A stretch of 56,709 nt of DNA, taken from a virus. Its lineage: Duplodnaviria > Caudoviricetes. Both the position numbers and the translations under genes were made by a program. Positions 3,604 to 14,637 of this stretch are shown here, in pieces. The stretch spans positions 1-56,709 of the IMG/VR virus record IMGVR_UViG_3300048009_000562. The stretch is one strand, 5' to 3'. Numbering within the stretch: position 1 is the stretch's first letter; each line of letters starts with the position of its first letter. The notes under the pieces are model-generated. The model ran no database searches. It saw only the letters and a list, made by a program, of their open reading frames with translations, and was not told where the DNA came from.

Positions 3604-4698
3604 ATGTTGGAAGCATTAAAATCACTCTTCGAGAGCAGCGCACTTTCAGAAGAAGTAAAAGCAGAAATACAAACGGCTTGGGACGCGAAGATCACTGAGA
3701 ATCGCCAACAAGTTACCGCTGAACTTCGTGAAGAATTTGCAAAGAAGTACGAACACGACAAGTCAACAATGGTGGAAGCCATTGATAGCATGTTATCTGA
3801 AAGATTAGCAGAAGAAATTGCTGAATTTTCAGAAGATCGTAAACAACTTGCAGAAGCTAAAGCAAAATATGCCATTGCAATGCGTGAAAACGCAGAGCTA
3901 ATGAAAGATTTTGTTTTAAATCAACTTTCAAAAGAAGTTGGTGAACTACACGAAGACAAGAAAGCAATGGCATCTAAGTATGCACAGCTTGAGGAATTTG
4001 TAGTTGAAGCTCTTTCATCTGAGATTGCAGAGTTCTATGAAGATAAGAAAGATTTAGCAGAAACAAAAGTACGTTTAGTACGTGAAGCTAAAGAACACTT
4101 CAAGAAAGTTAAAACTAACTTTGTTGAAAGAAGTGCTACGGCAGTATCAGAAACTGTTGATAAAGTTCTCAAAGGAGAAATTAGTCAACTTAAAGAAGAT
4201 ATTGAAGAAGCACGAAGAAACGATTTTGGTCGCAAAATATTTGAATCATTCAGCAATGAATATGCAAATAGCTACCTAAATGAAAAAAGCGAAAGTGCTA
4301 AGTTACTTAAAGTTATTGACCTTAAAGACCAACAACTTCAAGAAGCAAAAGCATTTGCTACTAAAGCTAAAACATTAGCAGAAGCTCAGGCAACTGAGAA
4401 GAAGCAATTAGTTGAAGCAGCAAACCGTGAAAAGATCATGCGCGATCTAATTGCTCCATTGAGCAGAGATCAGCAAGAGATTATGACAGACTTACTGGAA
4501 AGTGTACAAACCACTAGATTACAAAAATCTTTTGACAAGTACCTACCATCAGTTATTGATGGCCAGACTCCAGCAAAGCGTAAGGCAATATTATCAGAAG
4601 GCACAGAAGTAACAGGCAACAGAGAAAAAACAACGACACATGTCAAAGCAGACGAATCAAATGTACTTGATATACGCCGTCTTGCTGGATTAAATTAA
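3604..4698 (+). CDS. gp22: Prohead core scaffold protein, T4 gp22-like
   Basis: Long E/K/A-rich coiled-coil between protease and capsid, with a GRKIFE motif and many L-x-E sites. Confidence 0.85.
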   Translation: MLEALKSLFESSALSEEVKAEIQTAWDAKITENRQQVTAELREEFAKKYEHDKSTMVEAIDSMLSERLAEEIAEFSEDRKQLAEAKAKYAIAMRENAELMKDFVLNQLSKEVGELHEDKKAMASKYAQLEEFVVEALSSEIAEFYEDKKDLAETKVRLVREAKEHFKKVKTNFVERSATAVSETVDKVLKGEISQLKEDIEEARRNDFGRKIFESFSNEYANSYLNEKSESAKLLKVIDLKDQQLQEAKAFATKAKTLAEAQATEKKQLVEAANREKIMRDLIAPLSRDQQEIMTDLLESVQTTRLQKSFDKYLPSVIDGQTPAKRKAILSEGTEVTGNREKTTTHVKADESNVLDIRRLAGLN

Positions 4699-4705
4699 GG
4701 AGAAA

Positions 4706-5884
4706 ATGATGTCAGAACTATTAGAAAGTCGCTGGACAGAAACCAAAGATGCTCTTCTTGAAGGCCTAGACGGTAACAAGAAAAGCGTAATGGCTGCCAC
4801 ACTAGAAAACACTCGCAAGTATTTGTCTGAGAGTGCAACAGCTGGAGCAACATCAGCTGGTAACGTAGCAACACTTAACCGTGTTATCCTACCAGTTATC
4901 AGACGTGTTATGCCAACTGTTATTGCTAACGAGCTAGTTGGTGTACAACCAATGACTGGCCCAGTTGGTCAAATTCACACGTTACGTGTACGTTACGCAG
5001 AAGGCTTTGATAGCACAAACGGAACAGACACAACAGCTGGTGAAGAGGCGTTAAGCCCATTCAAGATTGCTGAAGGCTATTCAGGCGCAGCGGACGATAA
5101 AGCAGCTACTACAGCAGCTTTAGAAGGCCAAGCTGGACGTAAGTTAAGCATTCAAATCTTGAAGCAAACTGTAGAAGCGAAGTCAAGAAAGCTATCAGCT
5201 CGCTGGACTTTTGAAGCTGCACAGGATGCACAATCAATGCACGGTATTGACGTTGAAGCAGAAATTATGGCTGCTTTAGCACAAGAAATTACCGCTGAGA
5301 TTGATCAGGAAGTTTTAGCAAGCCTATCTAGCCTAGCTGGTAATGCCGCTGAAACATATGACCAAGCTGCTGTATCAGGTACAGCTACATTCGTTGGTGA
5401 CGAGCATGCTGCATTAGCTGTTCAGATCAACCGTGTTGCTAACTTGATTGCACAGCGTACACGTAGAGGCGCAGGTAACTACGCCGTAGTTAGCCCATTT
5501 GCGTTAACAATTCTACAAAGTGCAACAACTTCAGCGTTCGCAAGAACAACTGAAGGTACATTCGAAGCACCAACTAACACTAAGATGGTTGGTACATTGA
5601 ATAATGCAATGAAAGTGTACGTTAACACTTACTCAGCAGATGGTGCTGATGTACTTGTTGGTTACAAAGGCGCAAGCGAATCAGACGCACCAGCGTTTTA
5701 TTGCCCATACATTCCATTGATGTCAAGTGGTGTTGTATTAGATCCATCAACATTCGAACCTACCGTATCATTTATGACACGTTATGGTTATGTTGAATTG
5801 TCTAACACAGCTTCATCGCTTGGTAACGCAGCTGATTACTTAGGTAAAGTTGCAATTACTAATGGTAATGTTAGCTTTAGCTAA
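4706..5884 (+). CDS. gp23: Major capsid protein, T4 gp23-like
   Basis: RRVMPTVIANELVGVQPMTGPVGQI, AKSRKLSARWTFEAAQD, HGIDVEAE, FYCPYIPL and MTRYG. A probable maturation site lies at YLSE|SAT. Confidence 0.98.
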   Translation: MMSELLESRWTETKDALLEGLDGNKKSVMAATLENTRKYLSESATAGATSAGNVATLNRVILPVIRRVMPTVIANELVGVQPMTGPVGQIHTLRVRYAEGFDSTNGTDTTAGEEALSPFKIAEGYSGAADDKAATTAALEGQAGRKLSIQILKQTVEAKSRKLSARWTFEAAQDAQSMHGIDVEAEIMAALAQEITAEIDQEVLASLSSLAGNAAETYDQAAVSGTATFVGDEHAALAVQINRVANLIAQRTRRGAGNYAVVSPFALTILQSATTSAFARTTEGTFEAPTNTKMVGTLNNAMKVYVNTYSADGADVLVGYKGASESDAPAFYCPYIPLMSSGVVLDPSTFEPTVSFMTRYGYVELSNTASSLGNAADYLGKVAITNGNVSFS

Positions 5885-5900
5885 GTTTTTATAAACTGAG

Positions 5901-5929
5901 AAAATAGGACCTTCGGGTCCTATTTTTTT
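5901..5929 (+). terminator. Rho-independent terminator after the capsid gene
   Basis: AAAATAGGACC-TTCG-GGTCCTATTTT followed by more T: a perfect stem with a cUUCGg tetraloop. Confidence 0.93.
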
Positions 5930-5944
5930 GACTAAATAATTTTA

Positions 5945-6000
5945 GTATAGTCCGCTTTAGAGACTCGCATAGGTTCATGCGTTAAAAGAATCGTATATCT
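5945..6000 (+). ncRNA. Candidate structured leader RNA (two hairpins plus H-type pseudoknot) upstream of the YRGV peptide
   Basis: AGTC(5949-52)/GACT(5962-65) and CGCAT(5966-70)/ATGCG(5977-81) pair. Loop GGTTC(5972-76) is complementary to GAATC(5988-92) across an A-rich linker. A TAAATA box lies at 5933-38. Confidence 0.4.
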
Positions 6001-6020
6001 GTTATTATAGGAGAAATACG

Positions 6021-6083
6021 ATGACTAAAGAACTAACCTTTATATATCGCGGTGTTAAGTATGTTAAAACCGTAAGAGTATAA
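6021..6083 (+). CDS. 20-aa micro-peptide MTKELTFIYRGVKYVKTVRV (DUF4278-like YRGV peptide); absent from the supplied ORF track
   Basis: Hand translation, with AGGAG RBS at 6009-6013, a YRGVKY motif and a terminator immediately downstream. Confidence 0.75.
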   Translation: MTKELTFIYRGVKYVKTVRV

Positions 6084-6090
6084 TTCACGT

Positions 6091-6111
6091 AGGACAAGGA
6101 TGTCCTTTTTT
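6091..6111 (+). terminator. Rho-independent terminator after the micro-peptide
   Basis: AGGACA-AGGA-TGTCCT followed by a T run. Confidence 0.7.
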
Positions 6112-6123
6112 CAAATCTGTTTT

Positions 6124-6136
6124 GATAAATACTATT
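6124..6136 (+). promoter_or_regulatory. Late promoter variant GATAAATACTATT
   Basis: The identical 13-mer also occurs at 14660, and GATAAATACTA occurs at 46867. Confidence 0.65.
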
Positions 6137-6142
6137 GTCAAA

Positions 6143-6210
6143 TAGTGTGCCGCAAGGCGGACTTATGCTGTTTAACCCACAGCGTACCGGATAGAACCCG
6201 GATAGGACTA
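6143..6210 (+). ncRNA. Candidate structured 5' leader RNA (three hairpins)
   Basis: GCC-GCAA-GGC (GNRA loop), TATGCTGT/ACAGCGTA and CCGG/CCGG stems, possibly closed by TAGT/ACTA. It is GC-rich within an AT-rich intergenic region. Confidence 0.5.
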
Positions 6211-6229
6211 CTTATATAGGAGAAAAAAA

Positions 6230-6682
6230 ATGGGAAGACCAATTAACAAAAGATTTTTTGGACCAGCTACTGCAGGTGGTAATGAAATCAAAGTAGACTT
6301 TTATAACGGTGCAGCCGTTGTTGAAGGCTATATCGTAAAGCAATTAGGATCTAAAAAGTTTCGTGTAGCGGCTATCGGTACACCAGCAACAACTTACGAT
6401 CGTGTATTAACAACTGGTAAACTACCAGCTACGCTAACTGGCACAGAAATGGCTATTAGTGTAAAAGGTGATGACGGTGAAACTTACGGAGTTAGTAAAA
6501 TTTCAGGACGTAAGGCAACTATCGTTGCTCCAAATGCAACAGGTGCAAACGCATTAGACGGACAGTCAATTGCATGGAACTTTAGCACAAGCGCAGTTGA
6601 TGGTGCTGTTGAAATCGAAGAAGCTGGTGATGATGATACATTAATCGGCGTAGACGATACAGACTTCACTGAAGACGCATAA
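6230..6682 (+). CDS. Hypothetical virion protein (possible head-associated fibre base or decoration)
   Basis: Strong RBS and own late promoter; first gene of the fibre cluster after the capsid; beta-rich sequence. Confidence 0.6.
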   Translation: MGRPINKRFFGPATAGGNEIKVDFYNGAAVVEGYIVKQLGSKKFRVAAIGTPATTYDRVLTTGKLPATLTGTEMAISVKGDDGETYGVSKISGRKATIVAPNATGANALDGQSIAWNFSTSAVDGAVEIEEAGDDDTLIGVDDTDFTEDA

Positions 6683-8646: not shown

Positions 8647-11600
8647 ATGTCGCAAGTAGGTAGAATCTCAGGTCCGTTATTATTTGCCAATCTGGAAAGA
8701 AATGGTATTGATCTAGCCTTTGAAACAGACTTAATTTATCTTGATGTAACAGGCAACAAGATAGGTATACGCAATGCTTCACCTAGTAATGAAATACAAA
8801 TTTTAGACACTACTAGAACAGTATCTTTAATTGCTGATACACAAGCAAACATAGCAAACTTCGATATACAAACCACTACAATACAACCGTTTCCGGGCGA
8901 TGTAATTCTTGATGCAAGATATAAAATTACTAGTAGCAATGTAAAAACCGACGATATTTTTATTGATGACAATTACATTAGTACAACAAATAATAACAGT
9001 ATTTTAGAACTACGTCCTAACGGAACAGGACAAGTTGAAGTATTTTCAAACTTAGAAGTAGACGGAGATATACATGCCGATGGTAATATTACACTAGAAG
9101 GTAATATTACATTTGGTGATGCATTGTCTCAAGACACAGTTACATTTGATACTGATGTTACTAGTGATATTAATCCAAATACTACTGTAAATTATGCTCC
9201 ATATGATTTAGGTAAAGCTGATAAACGTTGGCTAGAAACTAATACAAGACTAGCAAACGTATCTAGAATAAATGCTACAGACTTTGCATTGGGCGGAGTT
9301 GACCTTACACTATCGCCTGGTAAAACTTTTTATGTTGCAAAAAATGGAGACAACGATAGTAACGGTGAACATATACAAGCACCATTTGAAACTATTGATT
9401 ATGCACTAACGCAAGTATCAGCAGGCGACACTGTTTATGTATTACCCGGCGAATACGAAGAGTCGTGTCCTTTAGTTGTACCAGCAGGAGTAACTGTTAC
9501 AGGTCATGACATAAGAAATACAATTATTACTCCTCCAAGTAGTTCAAGTTCAAGAGATATATTTCATCTTAACGGCGAAACTACTGTTCAAAATTTTACA
9601 ATAAAAGATTTCTTTTATGATAGCGGTAATGACGTAGGTTATGCATTTAGATTTGCTCCTAGTGCAACTGTAACATCACGTAGTCCGTATGTACAAAACA
9701 TCACAGTAAGCACACAAGGTAGCACAACTAGTGCAAGCGATCCAAGAGGATATGCAAGTGCAGATGCAGGTAAAGGTGCTCTTGTAGACGGTGCAAGTGT
9801 CCTTGGTACAAGTAACGAAGCAAGTATGTTATTTCATGCTGTAACATTTATTACACCAGGTGTTGATGCACTTACAATGACAAACGGAGTTAGGGTAGAA
9901 TGGCTCAACTCATTTACATATTTTGCCGACAAAGGAATGTATGCTGTAAATGGTTCAACAGGACATTTAAGTACAGACGGTTCAACAATATTATATGGTG
10001 CAGAATTAAGATCAATTGGATCAGCAAACGTATACGGAAACAAAGGTGCAGTAGCAGACGGCGATGACACACTAATGTACCTTATCCAACATAACTTTGG
10101 ATACATAGGTGCAGGCAAATTTGTCGACAATGATCCAAGTAGAGCAATACAAGCAAACGAAACTGAAGAATTAAATTCAGGTACAATTTACTTTAGTTCT
10201 ACAGACCATCTAGGAAATTTTAGAGTTGGTGAACAATTTTTTGTTGACTTAGACACAGGAAACAGTACACTTACTATTGACGAATCAACTGTAGATTCAC
10301 TTGCTGGATTAACTGTAACTACAAATGGTAACATTGCAATTATAGATGCAACAAAGATACAAAATCAAAATATCAGATTAAGCGGCAACACAATAGAAAG
10401 CCTAAGTGGCGGCATGACTATTGATAGTCCTGTGTCTACATTTATTAATCTAAATGGCGATACTAGTCTCACTGGTAACTTAGATATAACAAATAACTTT
10501 ACATTTGATGGAACACTTTCACTAGCAGGTAATCAGCCAACTGATACAGTTACATTTAATACAGAATTTAGTCAAGACTTAGAACCTAATCAACACGATA
10601 CTTTTACATTAGGTAAGGAAGACAAGCGTTGGAATTTTGCATATGTAAATGATGCAGATTTAAATGGTATAACAATTGAAACAAATGTTATTACTACAAC
10701 TGATAGCAATGCTGACTTAGAATTAAGACCTAATGGAACTGGCAAAGTAAACATTACCGACGATGTAGGAATTGGCAATGATATTACTGTTGGCGGTACG
10801 TCTACATTCCAAAACTTACAAGTTGCTACTATTGATGTTGATGCTGATATTACAGCAACAGACTTTACTATTAGAAACTTTGATATACAAGGTAACTTAG
10901 GTCAACTAGGTCGTACACAATTTGAAAATATAGTAATTGATGACAACTTTATTTCTACTACAGTAAGTAATAGTGATTTAGAATTACGTGCTGCCGGCAC
11001 AGGTGAAGTTACAACTGATGAATTTGTAAGAATTAATAATACACTATTTAATGAAAGTACAACTACAACTGGTCCTGTAACTATTTCAGGACAAACAACA
11101 TTTACTACTTTAACAACAGATGATATTACAATAAACAGTAATAGTATACAAGTTAACAATACTAATCAAGACCTTATTATAGAAACATTTCCACGTGAAA
11201 TATTTACTGGAACTATTGAAAGATGGGGCGGTGCTGTACAAACTGGCGGTACTATTAGCTATGGCTCCTATAGATGGGGATACGACGGATTCAATACCAA
11301 CGGAGTTTATCCAGACCCTCGTGATAGTTTAGTAGTAGGAAAGACGTACAATCTTACATTTACACAGTATAACACTGGAAAAATTATAAAAGTACCAAGG
11401 GTTTATAAAGGGTATAACTACTCAACGTCAGATATTGCTGATATAAACTCTTTTTGGTTTTTAAACACTAACTCAGGGACACCCGGACCAAATGATTTTG
11501 CAATACGAATTGGCTGGGGCTCAGAAGATGGTGTTAACGGCAACGCAGCTAATGGCGGAAGAAATCCCACAGGTTGGCGACCCTCTGGCGCCTGGATTGC

Positions 11601-14600
11601 ATATCCAGCAATAATAGAATTTTTTGAAGTTACTAATCAAGATGGTGATGTAAAAATTAACACTAGCGATGTTGTTATTGAAGAAAATCTTACAGTAGAA
11701 GGTAGTAGCAACTTTGCAGATTTAAACGTTATAGGTAGTTTGCAACACACTGGTGACAGAACACAAACCGGCAATTACAATATTGCAGGAGAAATAACTA
11801 ACGAAAAAATCTTAATAGAAGATAACTTTATTACAACCTACGGACCGTCATTAGATTTACAAATAAAAGCAAATGGCACAGGCGAAATTTACATTCCATC
11901 TAATGTTCAATTTGATAATGATCTAACAGTACAAGGTACAAGTACATTTAGTGATATGACGGTAAATGGTACATTCCAACCAGGATTTGCATATATTACT
12001 GGCGACAGAGGATTTACTGGAAATTTAACTATTACAGAAAATTTAACTGTTGATCAAAAAGCACAGTTTGAAGAAATATTAATTGATGATAATTTTATTA
12101 CAACGACTTCAAGTAATGCAGATTTAGAACTTCGTGCTCGCAATGCCGGCGTAGTATTAATACCAAACAACGATGTAGAAATTACAAATAATTTAAGTGT
12201 AGCAAATGCACAAGTTGTAAATGTTAATATTGCACAAGACTTAGTGTTAAATGAATTAATTATACCACCTAGCATTATAGAAATAGATGATAACTTTATT
12301 AGCACAAGAATATCAAACGCTGATTTAGATTTACGTGCAGACGGTAATGGAAATATTGTGTTCACTGATAATACTACTATTACTGACGCACTCAATGTTA
12401 ATACACTAAGCACTTTAGACGATGTTGAAATTACAGGCATTACAAATATTAATGGCAATACAACATTCACTAATGATTATACTGTTACAGGACAACTAAC
12501 AACTGATAAATTAGTCTTAACTGAAAATTATCAAGACTTTGAAAAAGTTGGTATATATGGCAATAAGATTATATCTCAAGAATCAAATACTGATTTAGAA
12601 TTACGTGCTAGTGGAACTGGCAGAGTTGTAATAGACGATGCTATATTTTCTCAAGGAACTACAGCAAAAGATTTAACAGCAACAAATATTGTTGCAGATC
12701 AAGACTTTTTTGCAGAAGTTATTGACGTAGGTGATATTGAAATATTTGATAATGTTATTACAACATCTACATCAAACAGTGATTTAGAATTACGTGCAAA
12801 CGCAGACGGTGAAGTTATTGTAGAGCAACCGCTTGATATAACCAATGGCCTAACTGTAAACGACACAGCAACACTTAATACTTTTGTTCAATTAGACGGA
12901 CAACTTGATATAACTGGCGATATAATACGCACAGGAAATACAGTAACACAACCTGGTCATACATACTCAGTAGATGGCGCCATTACAATTAATCCGGGTA
13001 ATCTTGACCTTGTTAAACTATCAAACTTTGCTTTCAATCAAAATCAAGTATTGTTACAAACTGCAAATGACCTTACATTAAATGCAATCGGAACTGGAAA
13101 TGTTGTTCTAACTGATACTATTGTAAGCCAAGATATGTCAGCAATCTCTGCGGCATTTGGAAGTTTGAGAATATTAGATAGTTTTGAATTAGAAAACATG
13201 GTTAGTTCAACTGACATTGAAATATTTGATAATGTTATAACAACAACTAACAGTAACAGCGATTTAGAATTACGTGCCCAAGGTAATGTAGAAATTGATA
13301 ACAATTTTAATGTTACAGGAAACACTGTTGTAACTGGCGCAACTAGTTTGCAAGATACTGATATTAATGCTAATCTTAATATAACAGCAAATGTAGTTCA
13401 AACAGGCAACAGGACTATTAGTAGCGATGTTTCAGTAACAAACTTAATTGTAGATAGACAAACAGATTTAGGCAATTTTACGTTTGAAGACAATACAATA
13501 ACAAATAATAATGCAGGCAATTTAACATTTACAGCACCAGGCACTGGCAATGTAATAATTGAACAAGGTAAAGTAGATAATAATTTATCTGCAGCGTCTG
13601 CTTCAGCATCAGACTTTGTAATTAATAATATTGTTACAGCAAATAAATTTGTGTCAACTGATGATATTGAAATATTCCAAAATGTTATTACAACAACTAA
13701 TAATAACAGCGATTTAGAGTTACGCACATCGGGTAGCGGCACAGTGTTTATTGAAGATTTAGAATTTGACGGGAGTTATTTAAAGTCAGCTTTTGATATT
13801 ACAATAGCATCTGATATTGTAGACTTTGATGCGGTACGTGCAATTAGATTACCGGCTGGTGATAGTTCACAACGTATAGTAGCATCTGTAGCATCGGTAG
13901 TACTAGATGGCGGTAATGGTGTAAATGATCCACAACCACTTACTGTAGATGGCGGAGATGCTGTTACAGTATTTGGCCCAACAGATACATTCTACGATGC
14001 AGGAACATCATTAGAACCAAATGGTAATCCAGGTGATATGCGATTTAATACTGATTTTAACTTATTTGAAGGATTTAGTCAAGCAAATAAATATTTTGGT
14101 GGTGTGTTCAGTGAAGATGCACAAACAAATGTACAAGCACTTAACGACGAGGTTGAGTTTAGGGTAGCAGGAACTAAAGTAGGTAGTGTAGCATATGACG
14201 GTGTAAACATTACTACAGCATTACAAACAACAAATATAACTATATCCGATAACATAGTTACATCTGAAAATAATACAGCATTACAACTAGTGCCAAATGG
14301 CGCAGGTAAAGTTAAGTTCTTTAACAATACAGCATTTGATGATAATAAAATACAAAATTTAGCAAACGACAATAGTTTAACACTAGCATCTACAGATGAC
14401 GGCTATATTAAAATTAACACAACTGTAAACGGATTTGTAATTCCTGTTGGTGACGACTCAAACAGGGGTGCAACTCCTGTTGTTGGTGAATTGCGTTATA
14501 ATACCGAAGCTGGCGACGAAGGCGGCGCTGAAGTGTACAATGGTACAGAATGGGTATCTGTTGCAGGCGATAATAGCCAAGCAGATGCACTTGTTATTGG

Positions 14601-14637
14601 TGAAGCCATTGACGAATGGACTCTTATACTAGGGTAA
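8647..14637 (+). CDS. Giant fibre/virion structural protein A1 (pectin-lyase-like beta-helix plus 14 'DNFITTT.SN.DLELR..GTG' repeats)
   Basis: FYVAKNG...PFETI..AL...GDTVYVLPGEYEE marks a beta-helix entry and RSPYVQN follows. It has a repeated shaft motif and is a paralogue of 14782. Confidence 0.8.
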   Translation: MSQVGRISGPLLFANLERNGIDLAFETDLIYLDVTGNKIGIRNASPSNEIQILDTTRTVSLIADTQANIANFDIQTTTIQPFPGDVILDARYKITSSNVKTDDIFIDDNYISTTNNNSILELRPNGTGQVEVFSNLEVDGDIHADGNITLEGNITFGDALSQDTVTFDTDVTSDINPNTTVNYAPYDLGKADKRWLETNTRLANVSRINATDFALGGVDLTLSPGKTFYVAKNGDNDSNGEHIQAPFETIDYALTQVSAGDTVYVLPGEYEESCPLVVPAGVTVTGHDIRNTIITPPSSSSSRDIFHLNGETTVQNFTIKDFFYDSGNDVGYAFRFAPSATVTSRSPYVQNITVSTQGSTTSASDPRGYASADAGKGALVDGASVLGTSNEASMLFHAVTFITPGVDALTMTNGVRVEWLNSFTYFADKGMYAVNGSTGHLSTDGSTILYGAELRSIGSANVYGNKGAVADGDDTLMYLIQHNFGYIGAGKFVDNDPSRAIQANETEELNSGTIYFSSTDHLGNFRVGEQFFVDLDTGNSTLTIDESTVDSLAGLTVTTNGNIAIIDATKIQNQNIRLSGNTIESLSGGMTIDSPVSTFINLNGDTSLTGNLDITNNFTFDGTLSLAGNQPTDTVTFNTEFSQDLEPNQHDTFTLGKEDKRWNFAYVNDADLNGITIETNVITTTDSNADLELRPNGTGKVNITDDVGIGNDITVGGTSTFQNLQVATIDVDADITATDFTIRNFDIQGNLGQLGRTQFENIVIDDNFISTTVSNSDLELRAAGTGEVTTDEFVRINNTLFNESTTTTGPVTISGQTTFTTLTTDDITINSNSIQVNNTNQDLIIETFPREIFTGTIERWGGAVQTGGTISYGSYRWGYDGFNTNGVYPDPRDSLVVGKTYNLTFTQYNTGKIIKVPRVYKGYNYSTSDIADINSFWFLNTNSGTPGPNDFAIRIGWGSEDGVNGNAANGGRNPTGWRPSGAWIAYPAIIEFFEVTNQDGDVKINTSDVVIEENLTVEGSSNFADLNVIGSLQHTGDRTQTGNYNIAGEITNEKILIEDNFITTYGPSLDLQIKANGTGEIYIPSNVQFDNDLTVQGTSTFSDMTVNGTFQPGFAYITGDRGFTGNLTITENLTVDQKAQFEEILIDDNFITTTSSNADLELRARNAGVVLIPNNDVEITNNLSVANAQVVNVNIAQDLVLNELIIPPSIIEIDDNFISTRISNADLDLRADGNGNIVFTDNTTITDALNVNTLSTLDDVEITGITNINGNTTFTNDYTVTGQLTTDKLVLTENYQDFEKVGIYGNKIISQESNTDLELRASGTGRVVIDDAIFSQGTTAKDLTATNIVADQDFFAEVIDVGDIEIFDNVITTSTSNSDLELRANADGEVIVEQPLDITNGLTVNDTATLNTFVQLDGQLDITGDIIRTGNTVTQPGHTYSVDGAITINPGNLDLVKLSNFAFNQNQVLLQTANDLTLNAIGTGNVVLTDTIVSQDMSAISAAFGSLRILDSFELENMVSSTDIEIFDNVITTTNSNSDLELRAQGNVEIDNNFNVTGNTVVTGATSLQDTDINANLNITANVVQTGNRTISSDVSVTNLIVDRQTDLGNFTFEDNTITNNNAGNLTFTAPGTGNVIIEQGKVDNNLSAASASASDFVINNIVTANKFVSTDDIEIFQNVITTTNNNSDLELRTSGSGTVFIEDLEFDGSYLKSAFDITIASDIVDFDAVRAIRLPAGDSSQRIVASVASVVLDGGNGVNDPQPLTVDGGDAVTVFGPTDTFYDAGTSLEPNGNPGDMRFNTDFNLFEGFSQANKYFGGVFSEDAQTNVQALNDEVEFRVAGTKVGSVAYDGVNITTALQTTNITISDNIVTSENNTALQLVPNGAGKVKFFNNTAFDDNKIQNLANDNSLTLASTDDGYIKINTTVNGFVIPVGDDSNRGATPVVGELRYNTEAGDEGGAEVYNGTEWVSVAGDNSQADALVIGEAIDEWTLILG

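Follow-up and report, generated by a model that had tools for sequence, protein, structure and literature searches.

The window, i.e., the whole stretch of DNA analyzed here (56,709 nt), is a fragment of a large gp23-type phage; the record comprises 56.7 kb, with an estimated completeness of 15%. Pfam matches identify a prohead protease (S77, 6.4e-26) and a major capsid protein of the Gp23 family (2.1e-97) among its products, along with a scaffold protein. The nearest deposited capsid proteins belong to jumbo phages and share 67–70% identity with the protein of the window. Plus-strand location was found for 33 of the 36 long ORFs. An internally repetitive ORF of 1996 aa (8647–14637) may encode a fiber or another large structural protein.

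Organization of the cassette behind the major capsid gene

The major capsid gene ends at position 5884 and is followed by a cassette whose features are listed in Table 1. An earlier note on this DNA had described a self-contained micro-gene between two terminators, and all of the described parts were located. The cassette has the layout of a terminator-bounded unit, with a putative promoter represented by a promoter-like box on its 5′ side and a GC-rich hairpin followed by a T-run on its 3′ side. The leader had been described as ~55 nt long, with two hairpins and a pseudoknot. These structures were recovered; the length was revised to ~75 nt, counted from the likely start at ~5945–5948.

Table 1. 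Positions of the features of the cassette and of the preceding terminator in the window
Feature	Position	Strand	Description
Intrinsic terminator of the major capsid gene	5898..5930	+	14-bp stem, UUCG loop, T-run; seen in fold
Promoter-like box CTAAATAA	5932..5939	+	TAAATA at 5933-5938
P0 hairpin	5949..5965	+	AGUC / GACU (5949-5952 with 5962-5965), 9-nt loop, abutting P1
P1 hairpin	5966..5981	+	CGCAU / AUGCG (5966-5970 with 5977-5981), loop A-GGUUC
A-rich linker	5982..5987	+	UUAAAA, loop 3 of the pseudoknot
3′ strand of the pseudoknot	5988..5992	+	GAAUC, complementary to loop GGUUC 5972-5976; five pairs, one G-U
P3 platform helix	5990..6022	+	5990-5996 (AUCGUAU) with 6016-6022 (AUACGAU, including A and U of the start codon)
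Ribosome site	6009-6013	+	AGGAG
ORF	6021..6083	+	20-aa peptide MTKELTFIYRGVKYVKTVRV, stop included
Intrinsic terminator closing the cassette	6091..6112	+	6-bp stem, 4-nt loop, T-run; scan and fold

The terminator hairpin of the capsid gene was revealed by folding and is missing from the list of the consensus terminator scan; its stem is kept in sister loci with compensatory changes. The third helix, P3, is present in the minimum-energy fold of the leader and absent from the earlier description. It encloses the ribosome site and has 3 nt in common with the 3′ strand of the pseudoknot. An additional hairpin, ACUAAA/UUUAGU (5931–5946), overlaps the promoter-like box and probably lies outside the RNA.

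The TAAATA box is plausibly a late-type promoter of the phage, because it is enriched in intergenic DNA ahead of ORF starts. Thus, 11 of its 31 copies on the plus strand are intergenic vs. 1.4 expected (intergenic DNA makes up 4.6% of the window), and 9 of these 11 have an ORF start 24–297 nt downstream. The enrichment in the intergenic DNA of this strand is approximately eight-fold, and the usual form of the box before genes is (A/T)TAAATAC. We take this box to resemble the late promoter of phage T4. In sister loci, the same box precedes a glutamine-I cassette. Other copies of the leader element are preceded by a sigma-70-like promoter in some cases and by a TATAAATA box in others.

Comparison of positions 5860–6260 with 50,697 deposited phage records by DNA similarity search yielded no match. 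No small YRG ORF was found in the 80 best relatives by capsid protein, and relatives of the cassette surfaced through pattern scans only. Six sequencing runs, all available as contigs, were considered, and three of them contain part of the stretch. Among the four that were compared with the window, one of uncertain kind contained a 158-nt contig identical to it over 5861–6018; no contig reaches the ORF, and neither transcription nor its absence can be read from these runs.

A full-length freshwater-2 RNA (RF02980; 70.8 bits vs. a gathering score of 49.9) was found in the window at 6124–6232. It is preceded by a GATAAATAC box and ends at the start codon of a gene for a 150-aa protein (6230–6682). 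This RNA was also found in five other loci (L008, L011, L029, L082, and L104).

Recurrence and structure of the leader RNA

The leader (5931–6023) folds with an energy of -21.3 kcal/mol vs. -14.2 ± 2.8 kcal/mol for shuffled sequences (z = -2.5; 1 of 200 shuffles is as good). A strict pattern for this leader was found in 44 viral loci and in 61 metagenome hits; four distinct sequences (five loci) among the latter look like chance matches. No hits of the strict pattern were found in 185,579 cellular species genomes. A relaxed pattern was found at 14 loci in cellular genomes, of which one, L257, is a true array and the other 13 look like chance.

The core of the element is an H-type pseudoknot of 25 nt, herein referred to as the unit. 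It occurs singly behind P0, as in the window, or in arrays of two to four units with an exact period of 25 nt. The unit consists of a 5-bp P1 with three invariant inner pairs, an invariant A, a loop of 4–5 nt ending in C, an A-rich linker of 6 nt, and a strand that begins with G and is complementary to the loop. In the window, the core reads CGCAU-A-GGUUC-AUGCG-UUAAAA-GAAUC (5966–5992).

Pairing was analyzed in 12 distinct 25-nt units. In total, 95.4% of the cells are paired vs. 77.1% after shuffling, with none of 500 shuffles as high, and this control, like the other shuffle controls, overstates the significance because the sequences are related. The 12 units were selected with a pairing filter, the ascertainment of which was compared inside and outside leaders: of the 15 units inside leaders, 14 passed it, vs. 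2 of the 14 similar 25-mers that the retrieved DNA contained elsewhere. Changes on both sides were found in five of the nine pairs, two in P1 and three in the pseudoknot (covariation score 0.49 vs. 0.14). The outer two pairs of P1 covary in the tandem units, being represented by CG, GC, AU, UA, and UG; in the single-unit leaders, P1 is invariant because it was fixed in the search pattern. Of the four A columns in the linker, three are invariant, and the remaining one is at least 90% conserved.

The pseudoknot helix itself varies among the relatives, with the forms AGUC/GACU, GUGC/GCAC, and AGAC/GUCU. The metagenome scan added AAUC/GAUU, a compensatory variant in place of AGUC/GACU. Three of the four pseudoknot pairs are changed on both sides, and when the partner strand is slid by 1–3 columns, 21–39% of the cells are paired. 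Upstream of the unit, a P0 helix of at least 4 bp ends exactly at P1 in 19 of 20 distinct sequences, vs. a mean of 5.7 and a maximum of 13 in shuffles (0 of 1000 reaching 19) and 4–11 in offset controls. Three of the four P0 pairs are changed on both sides in a model-based alignment; on a MAFFT alignment, RNAalifold predicted P1 only and did not predict P0.

The covariation argues that the H-type pseudoknot of the leader is real. The GGTTC/GAATC pairing proposed in the earlier note is thereby upheld, and the covariation among homologous leaders by which it was to be checked was observed both in the unit and in P0. That the structure and the ORF are chance features of an AT-rich spacer is extremely improbable. 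The single copy in the window would be weak evidence against such a reading, given its z-score and the one shuffle in 200 that folds as well; the reading is refuted by more than 100 loci, by the covariation, and by synonymous codon changes in the ORF. Judged from the sequences, the element exceeds chance because of recurrence and covariation in other contigs and not because of the copy in the window.

Among the 44 viral loci, 12 are located directly behind a gp23-like capsid gene 84–99% identical to that of the window, and a thirteenth is cut before the capsid gene. In other loci, the element is immediately preceded by a major head gene of a different family, phrog_267 in L103 and phrog_1005 in L102. 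In two loci (L098 and L105), ORFs of like size occupy the capsid position. Elsewhere, the element precedes an Hsp20 gene (L110), adjoins a gp32-like SSB gene (L116), and occurs close to a large terminase gene (L092).

The true array in a cellular genome belongs to a metagenome-assembled genome (MAG) of Thermodesulfobacteriota (L257, 5918–6250, minus strand). It comprises four tandem units, one of them with a mismatched pseudoknot (pairing run of 1), and precedes an ORF of 67 aa, the C-terminal part of which resembles the second peptide type described below. The array is flanked by three tRNA genes as well as by an ArgJ-like ORF and an ABC-transporter-like ORF, both recognized by eye. In this genome, the only exact match to the pattern is that array; two one-mismatch matches lie elsewhere, vs. 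four for a reversed-pattern control, and the pattern scan revealed no wider regulon.

Downstream peptides and relation to glutamine riboswitches

The 44 viral loci were gathered by an RNA-based pattern scan that is independent of the coding sequence. Across 19 distinct homologous ORF nucleotide sequences, the residues YRGVKY are invariant except for one replacement of K by R. All six of the corresponding codons vary synonymously, with two or three forms each; Arg, for instance, is encoded by CGC, CGT, and AGA. Because the residues are kept while the codons vary, the ORF at 6021–6083 can be regarded as a real coding sequence under protein-level selection, and from the same synonymous variation we infer its translation in vivo. 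Peptides of the YRGVKY type are 16–27 aa long.

The peptide was expected to carry a YRG motif, which was found at residues 9–11, near the N terminus as in DUF4278. The peptide of the window matches no Pfam family at E ≤ 10. Its 27-aa relatives match only DUF4278 (PF14105), at 15.1 bits vs. a cut-off of 25.3 bits (E = 0.03) and thus below the threshold, with the match covering profile positions 2–14 of 57, i.e., the YRG block. By profile score, therefore, the peptide is not assigned to DUF4278. Its sole family resemblance, as judged from these alignments, is to the N-terminal YRG block of the DUF4278 proteins, IF17-like glutamine synthetase inactivating factors. The likeness consists of the M-x-L-x-YRG-x-x-Y block at the N terminus and the location behind nitrogen-responsive leaders; the difference lies in the absent or sub-threshold Pfam matches. 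We hypothesize that the peptide has a host-modulating role.

In total, 30 distinct leaders were assigned to downstream peptides. Of these, 24 precede YRG peptides and so have the placement known for glutamine riboswitches, before small DUF4278-like ORFs. The other six, all tandem arrays, precede a second peptide type, which is basic and probably helical. No third peptide type was found among 21 further distinct metagenome copies. Pfam searches with the second peptide type, with several peptides associated with glutamine-I, and with the 67-aa ORF of the MAG gave nothing credible.

A scan of viral contigs for the glutamine-I core revealed at least 120 loci, at least 22 of them with YRG peptides. 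Glutamine-I aptamers were confirmed by Rfam in L128, L144, L174, L195, L201, L206, and L150. In the first two of these, the aptamer is followed by 17-aa YRGVKY peptides near-identical to that of the window. Many other peptides behind glutamine-I aptamers, judged by eye among the matches listed, are basic like the second type. Among the matches listed, many of the longer peptides behind these aptamers repeat a YRGV(S/K)(W/Y) block two or three times; this block presumably recalls the YRG element of AP2-type DNA-binding domains.

In sister phages, the capsid proteins of which are 83–90% identical, the capsid gene and the following conserved gene, which was located in 24 of 80 loci, are separated by a gap of 155–1908 nt. 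In four of these phages (L008, L021, L029, and L011), the gap holds a glutamine-I aptamer and a small ORF behind the same terminator and TAAATA box. The link between YRG peptides and glutamine riboswitches drawn in the earlier note is thus borne out, both by this cassette in the same slot and by the aptamers of L128 and L144. The pseudoknot and glutamine-I cassettes are thus interchangeable with respect to position and cargo.

Structured RNAs, including glutamine-I aptamers with small ORFs and manA RNAs, are concentrated in the capsid-downstream slot of the sister phages, between the capsid terminator and the freshwater-2 RNA. Such RNAs were found around 3733–4021 in the four phages named above, as well as in L029 (3927–4131), L082 (12456–12661), and L011 (4256–4465). 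The phages with this concentration of RNAs are gp23-type relatives of jumbo phages and not known cyanophages.

Both kinds of RNA coexist in one leader, in L174 (5563–5650, minus strand), where a complete glutamine-I aptamer is preceded, at a distance of 3 nt, by a unit that has a P0-like hairpin of its own. This leader precedes a 36-aa peptide with two YRG motifs. The arrangement may reflect a different input or a generic role of the unit. Heterologous tandems that sense one ligand are represented by SAM-II with SAM-V.

The comparison with Rfam by Infernal that the earlier note had called for revealed no family over the element. A search of Rfam 15 over 5850–6260 at E ≤ 10 gave no match to it, and at the gathering threshold the neighboring freshwater-2 RNA was the only family found in the whole window. 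The element matched no family in a further 15 loci bearing the motif (gathering threshold), in L174, and in L257, nor did the four-unit array of L091 at E ≤ 10. Glutamine-I (RF01739) and glutamine-II (RF01704) both failed to match the leader at E ≤ 10, the latter throughout the record, and their gathering scores of 35 and 33 bits were not reached. The same search scored glutamine-I at 47–60 bits in L008, L011, L021, L029, L128, L144, L174, and others. The statement that the leader lacks both glutamine consensus sequences agrees with these results, and the possible new class of cis-acting RNA suggested at the same time is supported by the recurrence and covariation of an element absent from Rfam 15, the riboswitch function being hypothetical. 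We would place the element, as a new structural variant, among the small-peptide leaders of the glutamine-riboswitch regulon.

Within the main texts of the papers searched, no glutamine-III or type 3 glutamine riboswitch was found, and broader searches of the same scope gave no description of the pseudoknot element.

Other known systems were also compared. A type III toxin-antitoxin RNA was rejected as a candidate, since no ToxN-like gene lies downstream and the ORFs encode 16–36 aa, or 67 aa in L257. Guanidine-II (mini-ykkC) resembles the element in having very small modules in tandem before one gene; its modules are simple hairpins with ACGR loops that pair mutually, not pseudoknots, and its gene associations are unrelated to those of the leader. 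The leader shares the architecture of compact pseudoknot riboswitches, in which a 5-bp stem and a short loop 1 are combined with a short second helix, the third loop is A-rich and runs along the first stem, and the 3′ strand extends towards the ribosome site. It differs from them in having no second loop between the helices to hold a ligand-pairing base. No match to the leader was found at E ≤ 10 for preQ1-I, SAM-II/V, and guanidine-III, which are listed as the compact H-type pseudoknot class in excerpts of PMC6698751; for preQ1-I (RF00522), this holds for the window and for L091.

Possible functions of the leader

The late-type TAAATA promoter would probably start an mRNA of ~165 nt, at the 5′ end of which P0 would be stacked on the compact H-type pseudoknot. 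The latter comprises the 5-bp P1, a loop 1 of one nucleotide (A), a pseudoknot helix of 3–5 bp, and the loop UUAAAA. Its 3′ strand, GAAUC, would double as the first part of P3, so that the pseudoknot and P3 would be mutually exclusive. With the pseudoknot stabilized, the start codon would be free and the 20-aa YRGVKY peptide would be made; otherwise, P3 would shut the initiation region. A translational ON switch is suggested by this model because the 3′ strand of the pseudoknot overlaps the helix that pairs with the start codon. What we infer here is the switch, its ON polarity, and its effector. As the whole explanation, a self-contained moron-like cassette with a pseudoknot-controlled translational ON switch, occupying a highly transcribed slot of a jumbo gp23-type phage downstream of its major capsid gene, is favored with moderate confidence.

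When the pseudoknot strand is blocked in folding calculations for the window, the energetic cost is 5.1 kcal/mol, and the mean unpaired probability of the stretch from the Shine-Dalgarno site (SD) to the AUG increases from 0.22 to 0.40. The cost is 2.8–6.7 kcal/mol in 18 of 20 distinct leaders and near zero in the other two (0.9 kcal/mol in L086 and 0.4 kcal/mol in L103), and the accessibility of the SD to AUG region is increased in all 20. In leaders of the tandem type, it is the SD that the competing helix covers. Covariation in P3 is weak (76% paired vs. 71% shuffled and 72% with a slide of +3), and the main support for the predicted helix comes from conserved sequence and from the folding of single sequences.

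We hypothesize that the leader functions as a riboswitch. According to excerpts of PMC6212724, glutamine-I and glutamine-II are ON switches located mainly before DUF4278 ORFs, which is the polarity proposed for the leader. Since the pseudoknot and glutamine-I cassettes are interchangeable, the reasoning commonly applied in riboswitch discovery would suggest one signal, or two related ones, for both. By this analogy, the leading guess for the effector is glutamine or nitrogen status. Stabilization of the pseudoknot by a small metabolite or ion is given slightly less than an even chance, and glutamine as the stabilizing compound, counted against all possibilities, is considered unlikely. Equally speculative is the proposal in its full form, namely that the 25-nt unit serves as the aptamer for a riboswitch class sensing glutamine or nitrogen status, the third of its kind and structurally unrelated to the other two. 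Such units would act alone or, in arrays with as many as four members, cooperatively, and would couple production of IF17-like micro-peptides to the nitrogen state of the host late in infection. Against glutamine sensing, the unit has only 25 nt, its pseudoknot sequence varies freely, and the glutamine-contacting CGUUC/GAACG helix and the linking strand are absent in comparison with excerpts of PMC6698751, where a shared binding core of glutamine-I and glutamine-II is described. The likeness to glutamine-I consists of control over the same YRGVKY micro-peptides (L128 and L144) and of tandem occurrence, also mentioned for glutamine-I in excerpts of PMC2864571. Glutamine-I is a three-way junction with an E-loop, in contrast to the H-type pseudoknot of the leader, and the two have no sequence likeness.

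Glutamine-II shares with the leader a short pseudoknotted element in the 5′ UTR before very small YRG ORFs, a marine distribution including phage, and, as published in PMC6212724 and PMC6698751, translational ON switching, the polarity that we propose here. It differs in topology and size (~60 nt vs. the 25-nt unit), and the arrays of up to four set the leader element apart. The leader might be a diverged or permuted member of glutamine-II (Downstream-peptide) and not a new class. In favor of this, both RNAs form pseudoknots from coaxial helices and precede small ORFs of the YRG type, and GGUUC/GAAUC faintly echoes CGUUC/GAACG of the solved structure (excerpts of PMC6698751). Neither RF01704 nor RF01739 matches the leader, however; the strand connectivity is different, the 5′ strand of the pseudoknot being a hairpin loop here; and the pseudoknot sequence is free, whereas that of glutamine-II holds nucleotides conserved at >97% (excerpts of PMC6698751). 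The CGUUC/GAACG helix with the CGC linking strand of the glutamine-II pocket was not seen on inspection of the leader against the same excerpts. Membership in glutamine-II is already contradicted by the tests made and is considered very improbable. A different account, in which the units are binding sites for a protein regulator of the phage or host, or for the basic peptide in feedback, with arrays acting cooperatively, is rated as rather unlikely. It would explain the small repeated units with their exact 25-nt period and the K- and R-rich peptides of both downstream types, and a unit upstream of a complete glutamine-I aptamer, as in L174, is possible under it. Small repetitive hairpin architecture was taken to suggest protein binding in a remark by Weinberg (2010; excerpts of PMC2864571). 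On the other side, two peptide types without an evident common motif would need to recognize one RNA, a glutamine-I aptamer without any unit serves the same peptides in L128 and L144, and no common dedicated partner is evident for at least three capsid families and a bacterial MAG. Mini-ykkC, the subject of that remark, was reportedly shown later to bind guanidine.

The exact tandem period would also fit a purely structural leader. In this account, a very stable stacked structure at the 5′ end would protect the short mRNA from 5′-end-dependent decay or would boost initiation, with no switching. P0 begins 7–11 nt after a -10-like element under three promoter types and would thus lie at the very 5′ end; all the helices of abutting units could stack; and the cassette follows major capsid genes of three families, in regions where late expression is high. 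A stabilizer, however, needs neither the invariant A of loop 1, nor the inner pairs of P1, nor the A-tract across divergent phages, and the conserved overlap of the pseudoknot strand with an anti-start or anti-SD helix would be superfluous. Moreover, the element precedes two peptide types only and not other late genes, with one model copy in the 56.7-kb window. A constitutive role is rated as quite unlikely, and the pseudoknot-controlled ON switch is retained as the preferred reading.

If the leader is a sensor, a new RNA class joins the regulon that defined both glutamine riboswitches. In that case, jumbo and other marine phages would swap glutamine-I and pseudoknot cassettes before the same micro-peptides at the hottest site of late expression, and the role of very short YRG (IF17-like) peptides, as well as the reason for their carriage by phages, would become directly testable. 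Should a third glutamine class prove true, the unit would be among the smallest natural aptamers, used by several marine phage lineages and at least one bacterium. Even without a small ligand, the leader provides a compact and modular pseudoknot that is supported by covariation and has a clear competitor in the alternative helix; it could serve as a model system and as a component in the engineering of translational control.

In the viral contig L201 (7297–7814), the glutamine-I aptamer (59.1 bits) lies 6 nt after a tmRNA gene (alpha/permuted tmRNA, 104–108 bits).
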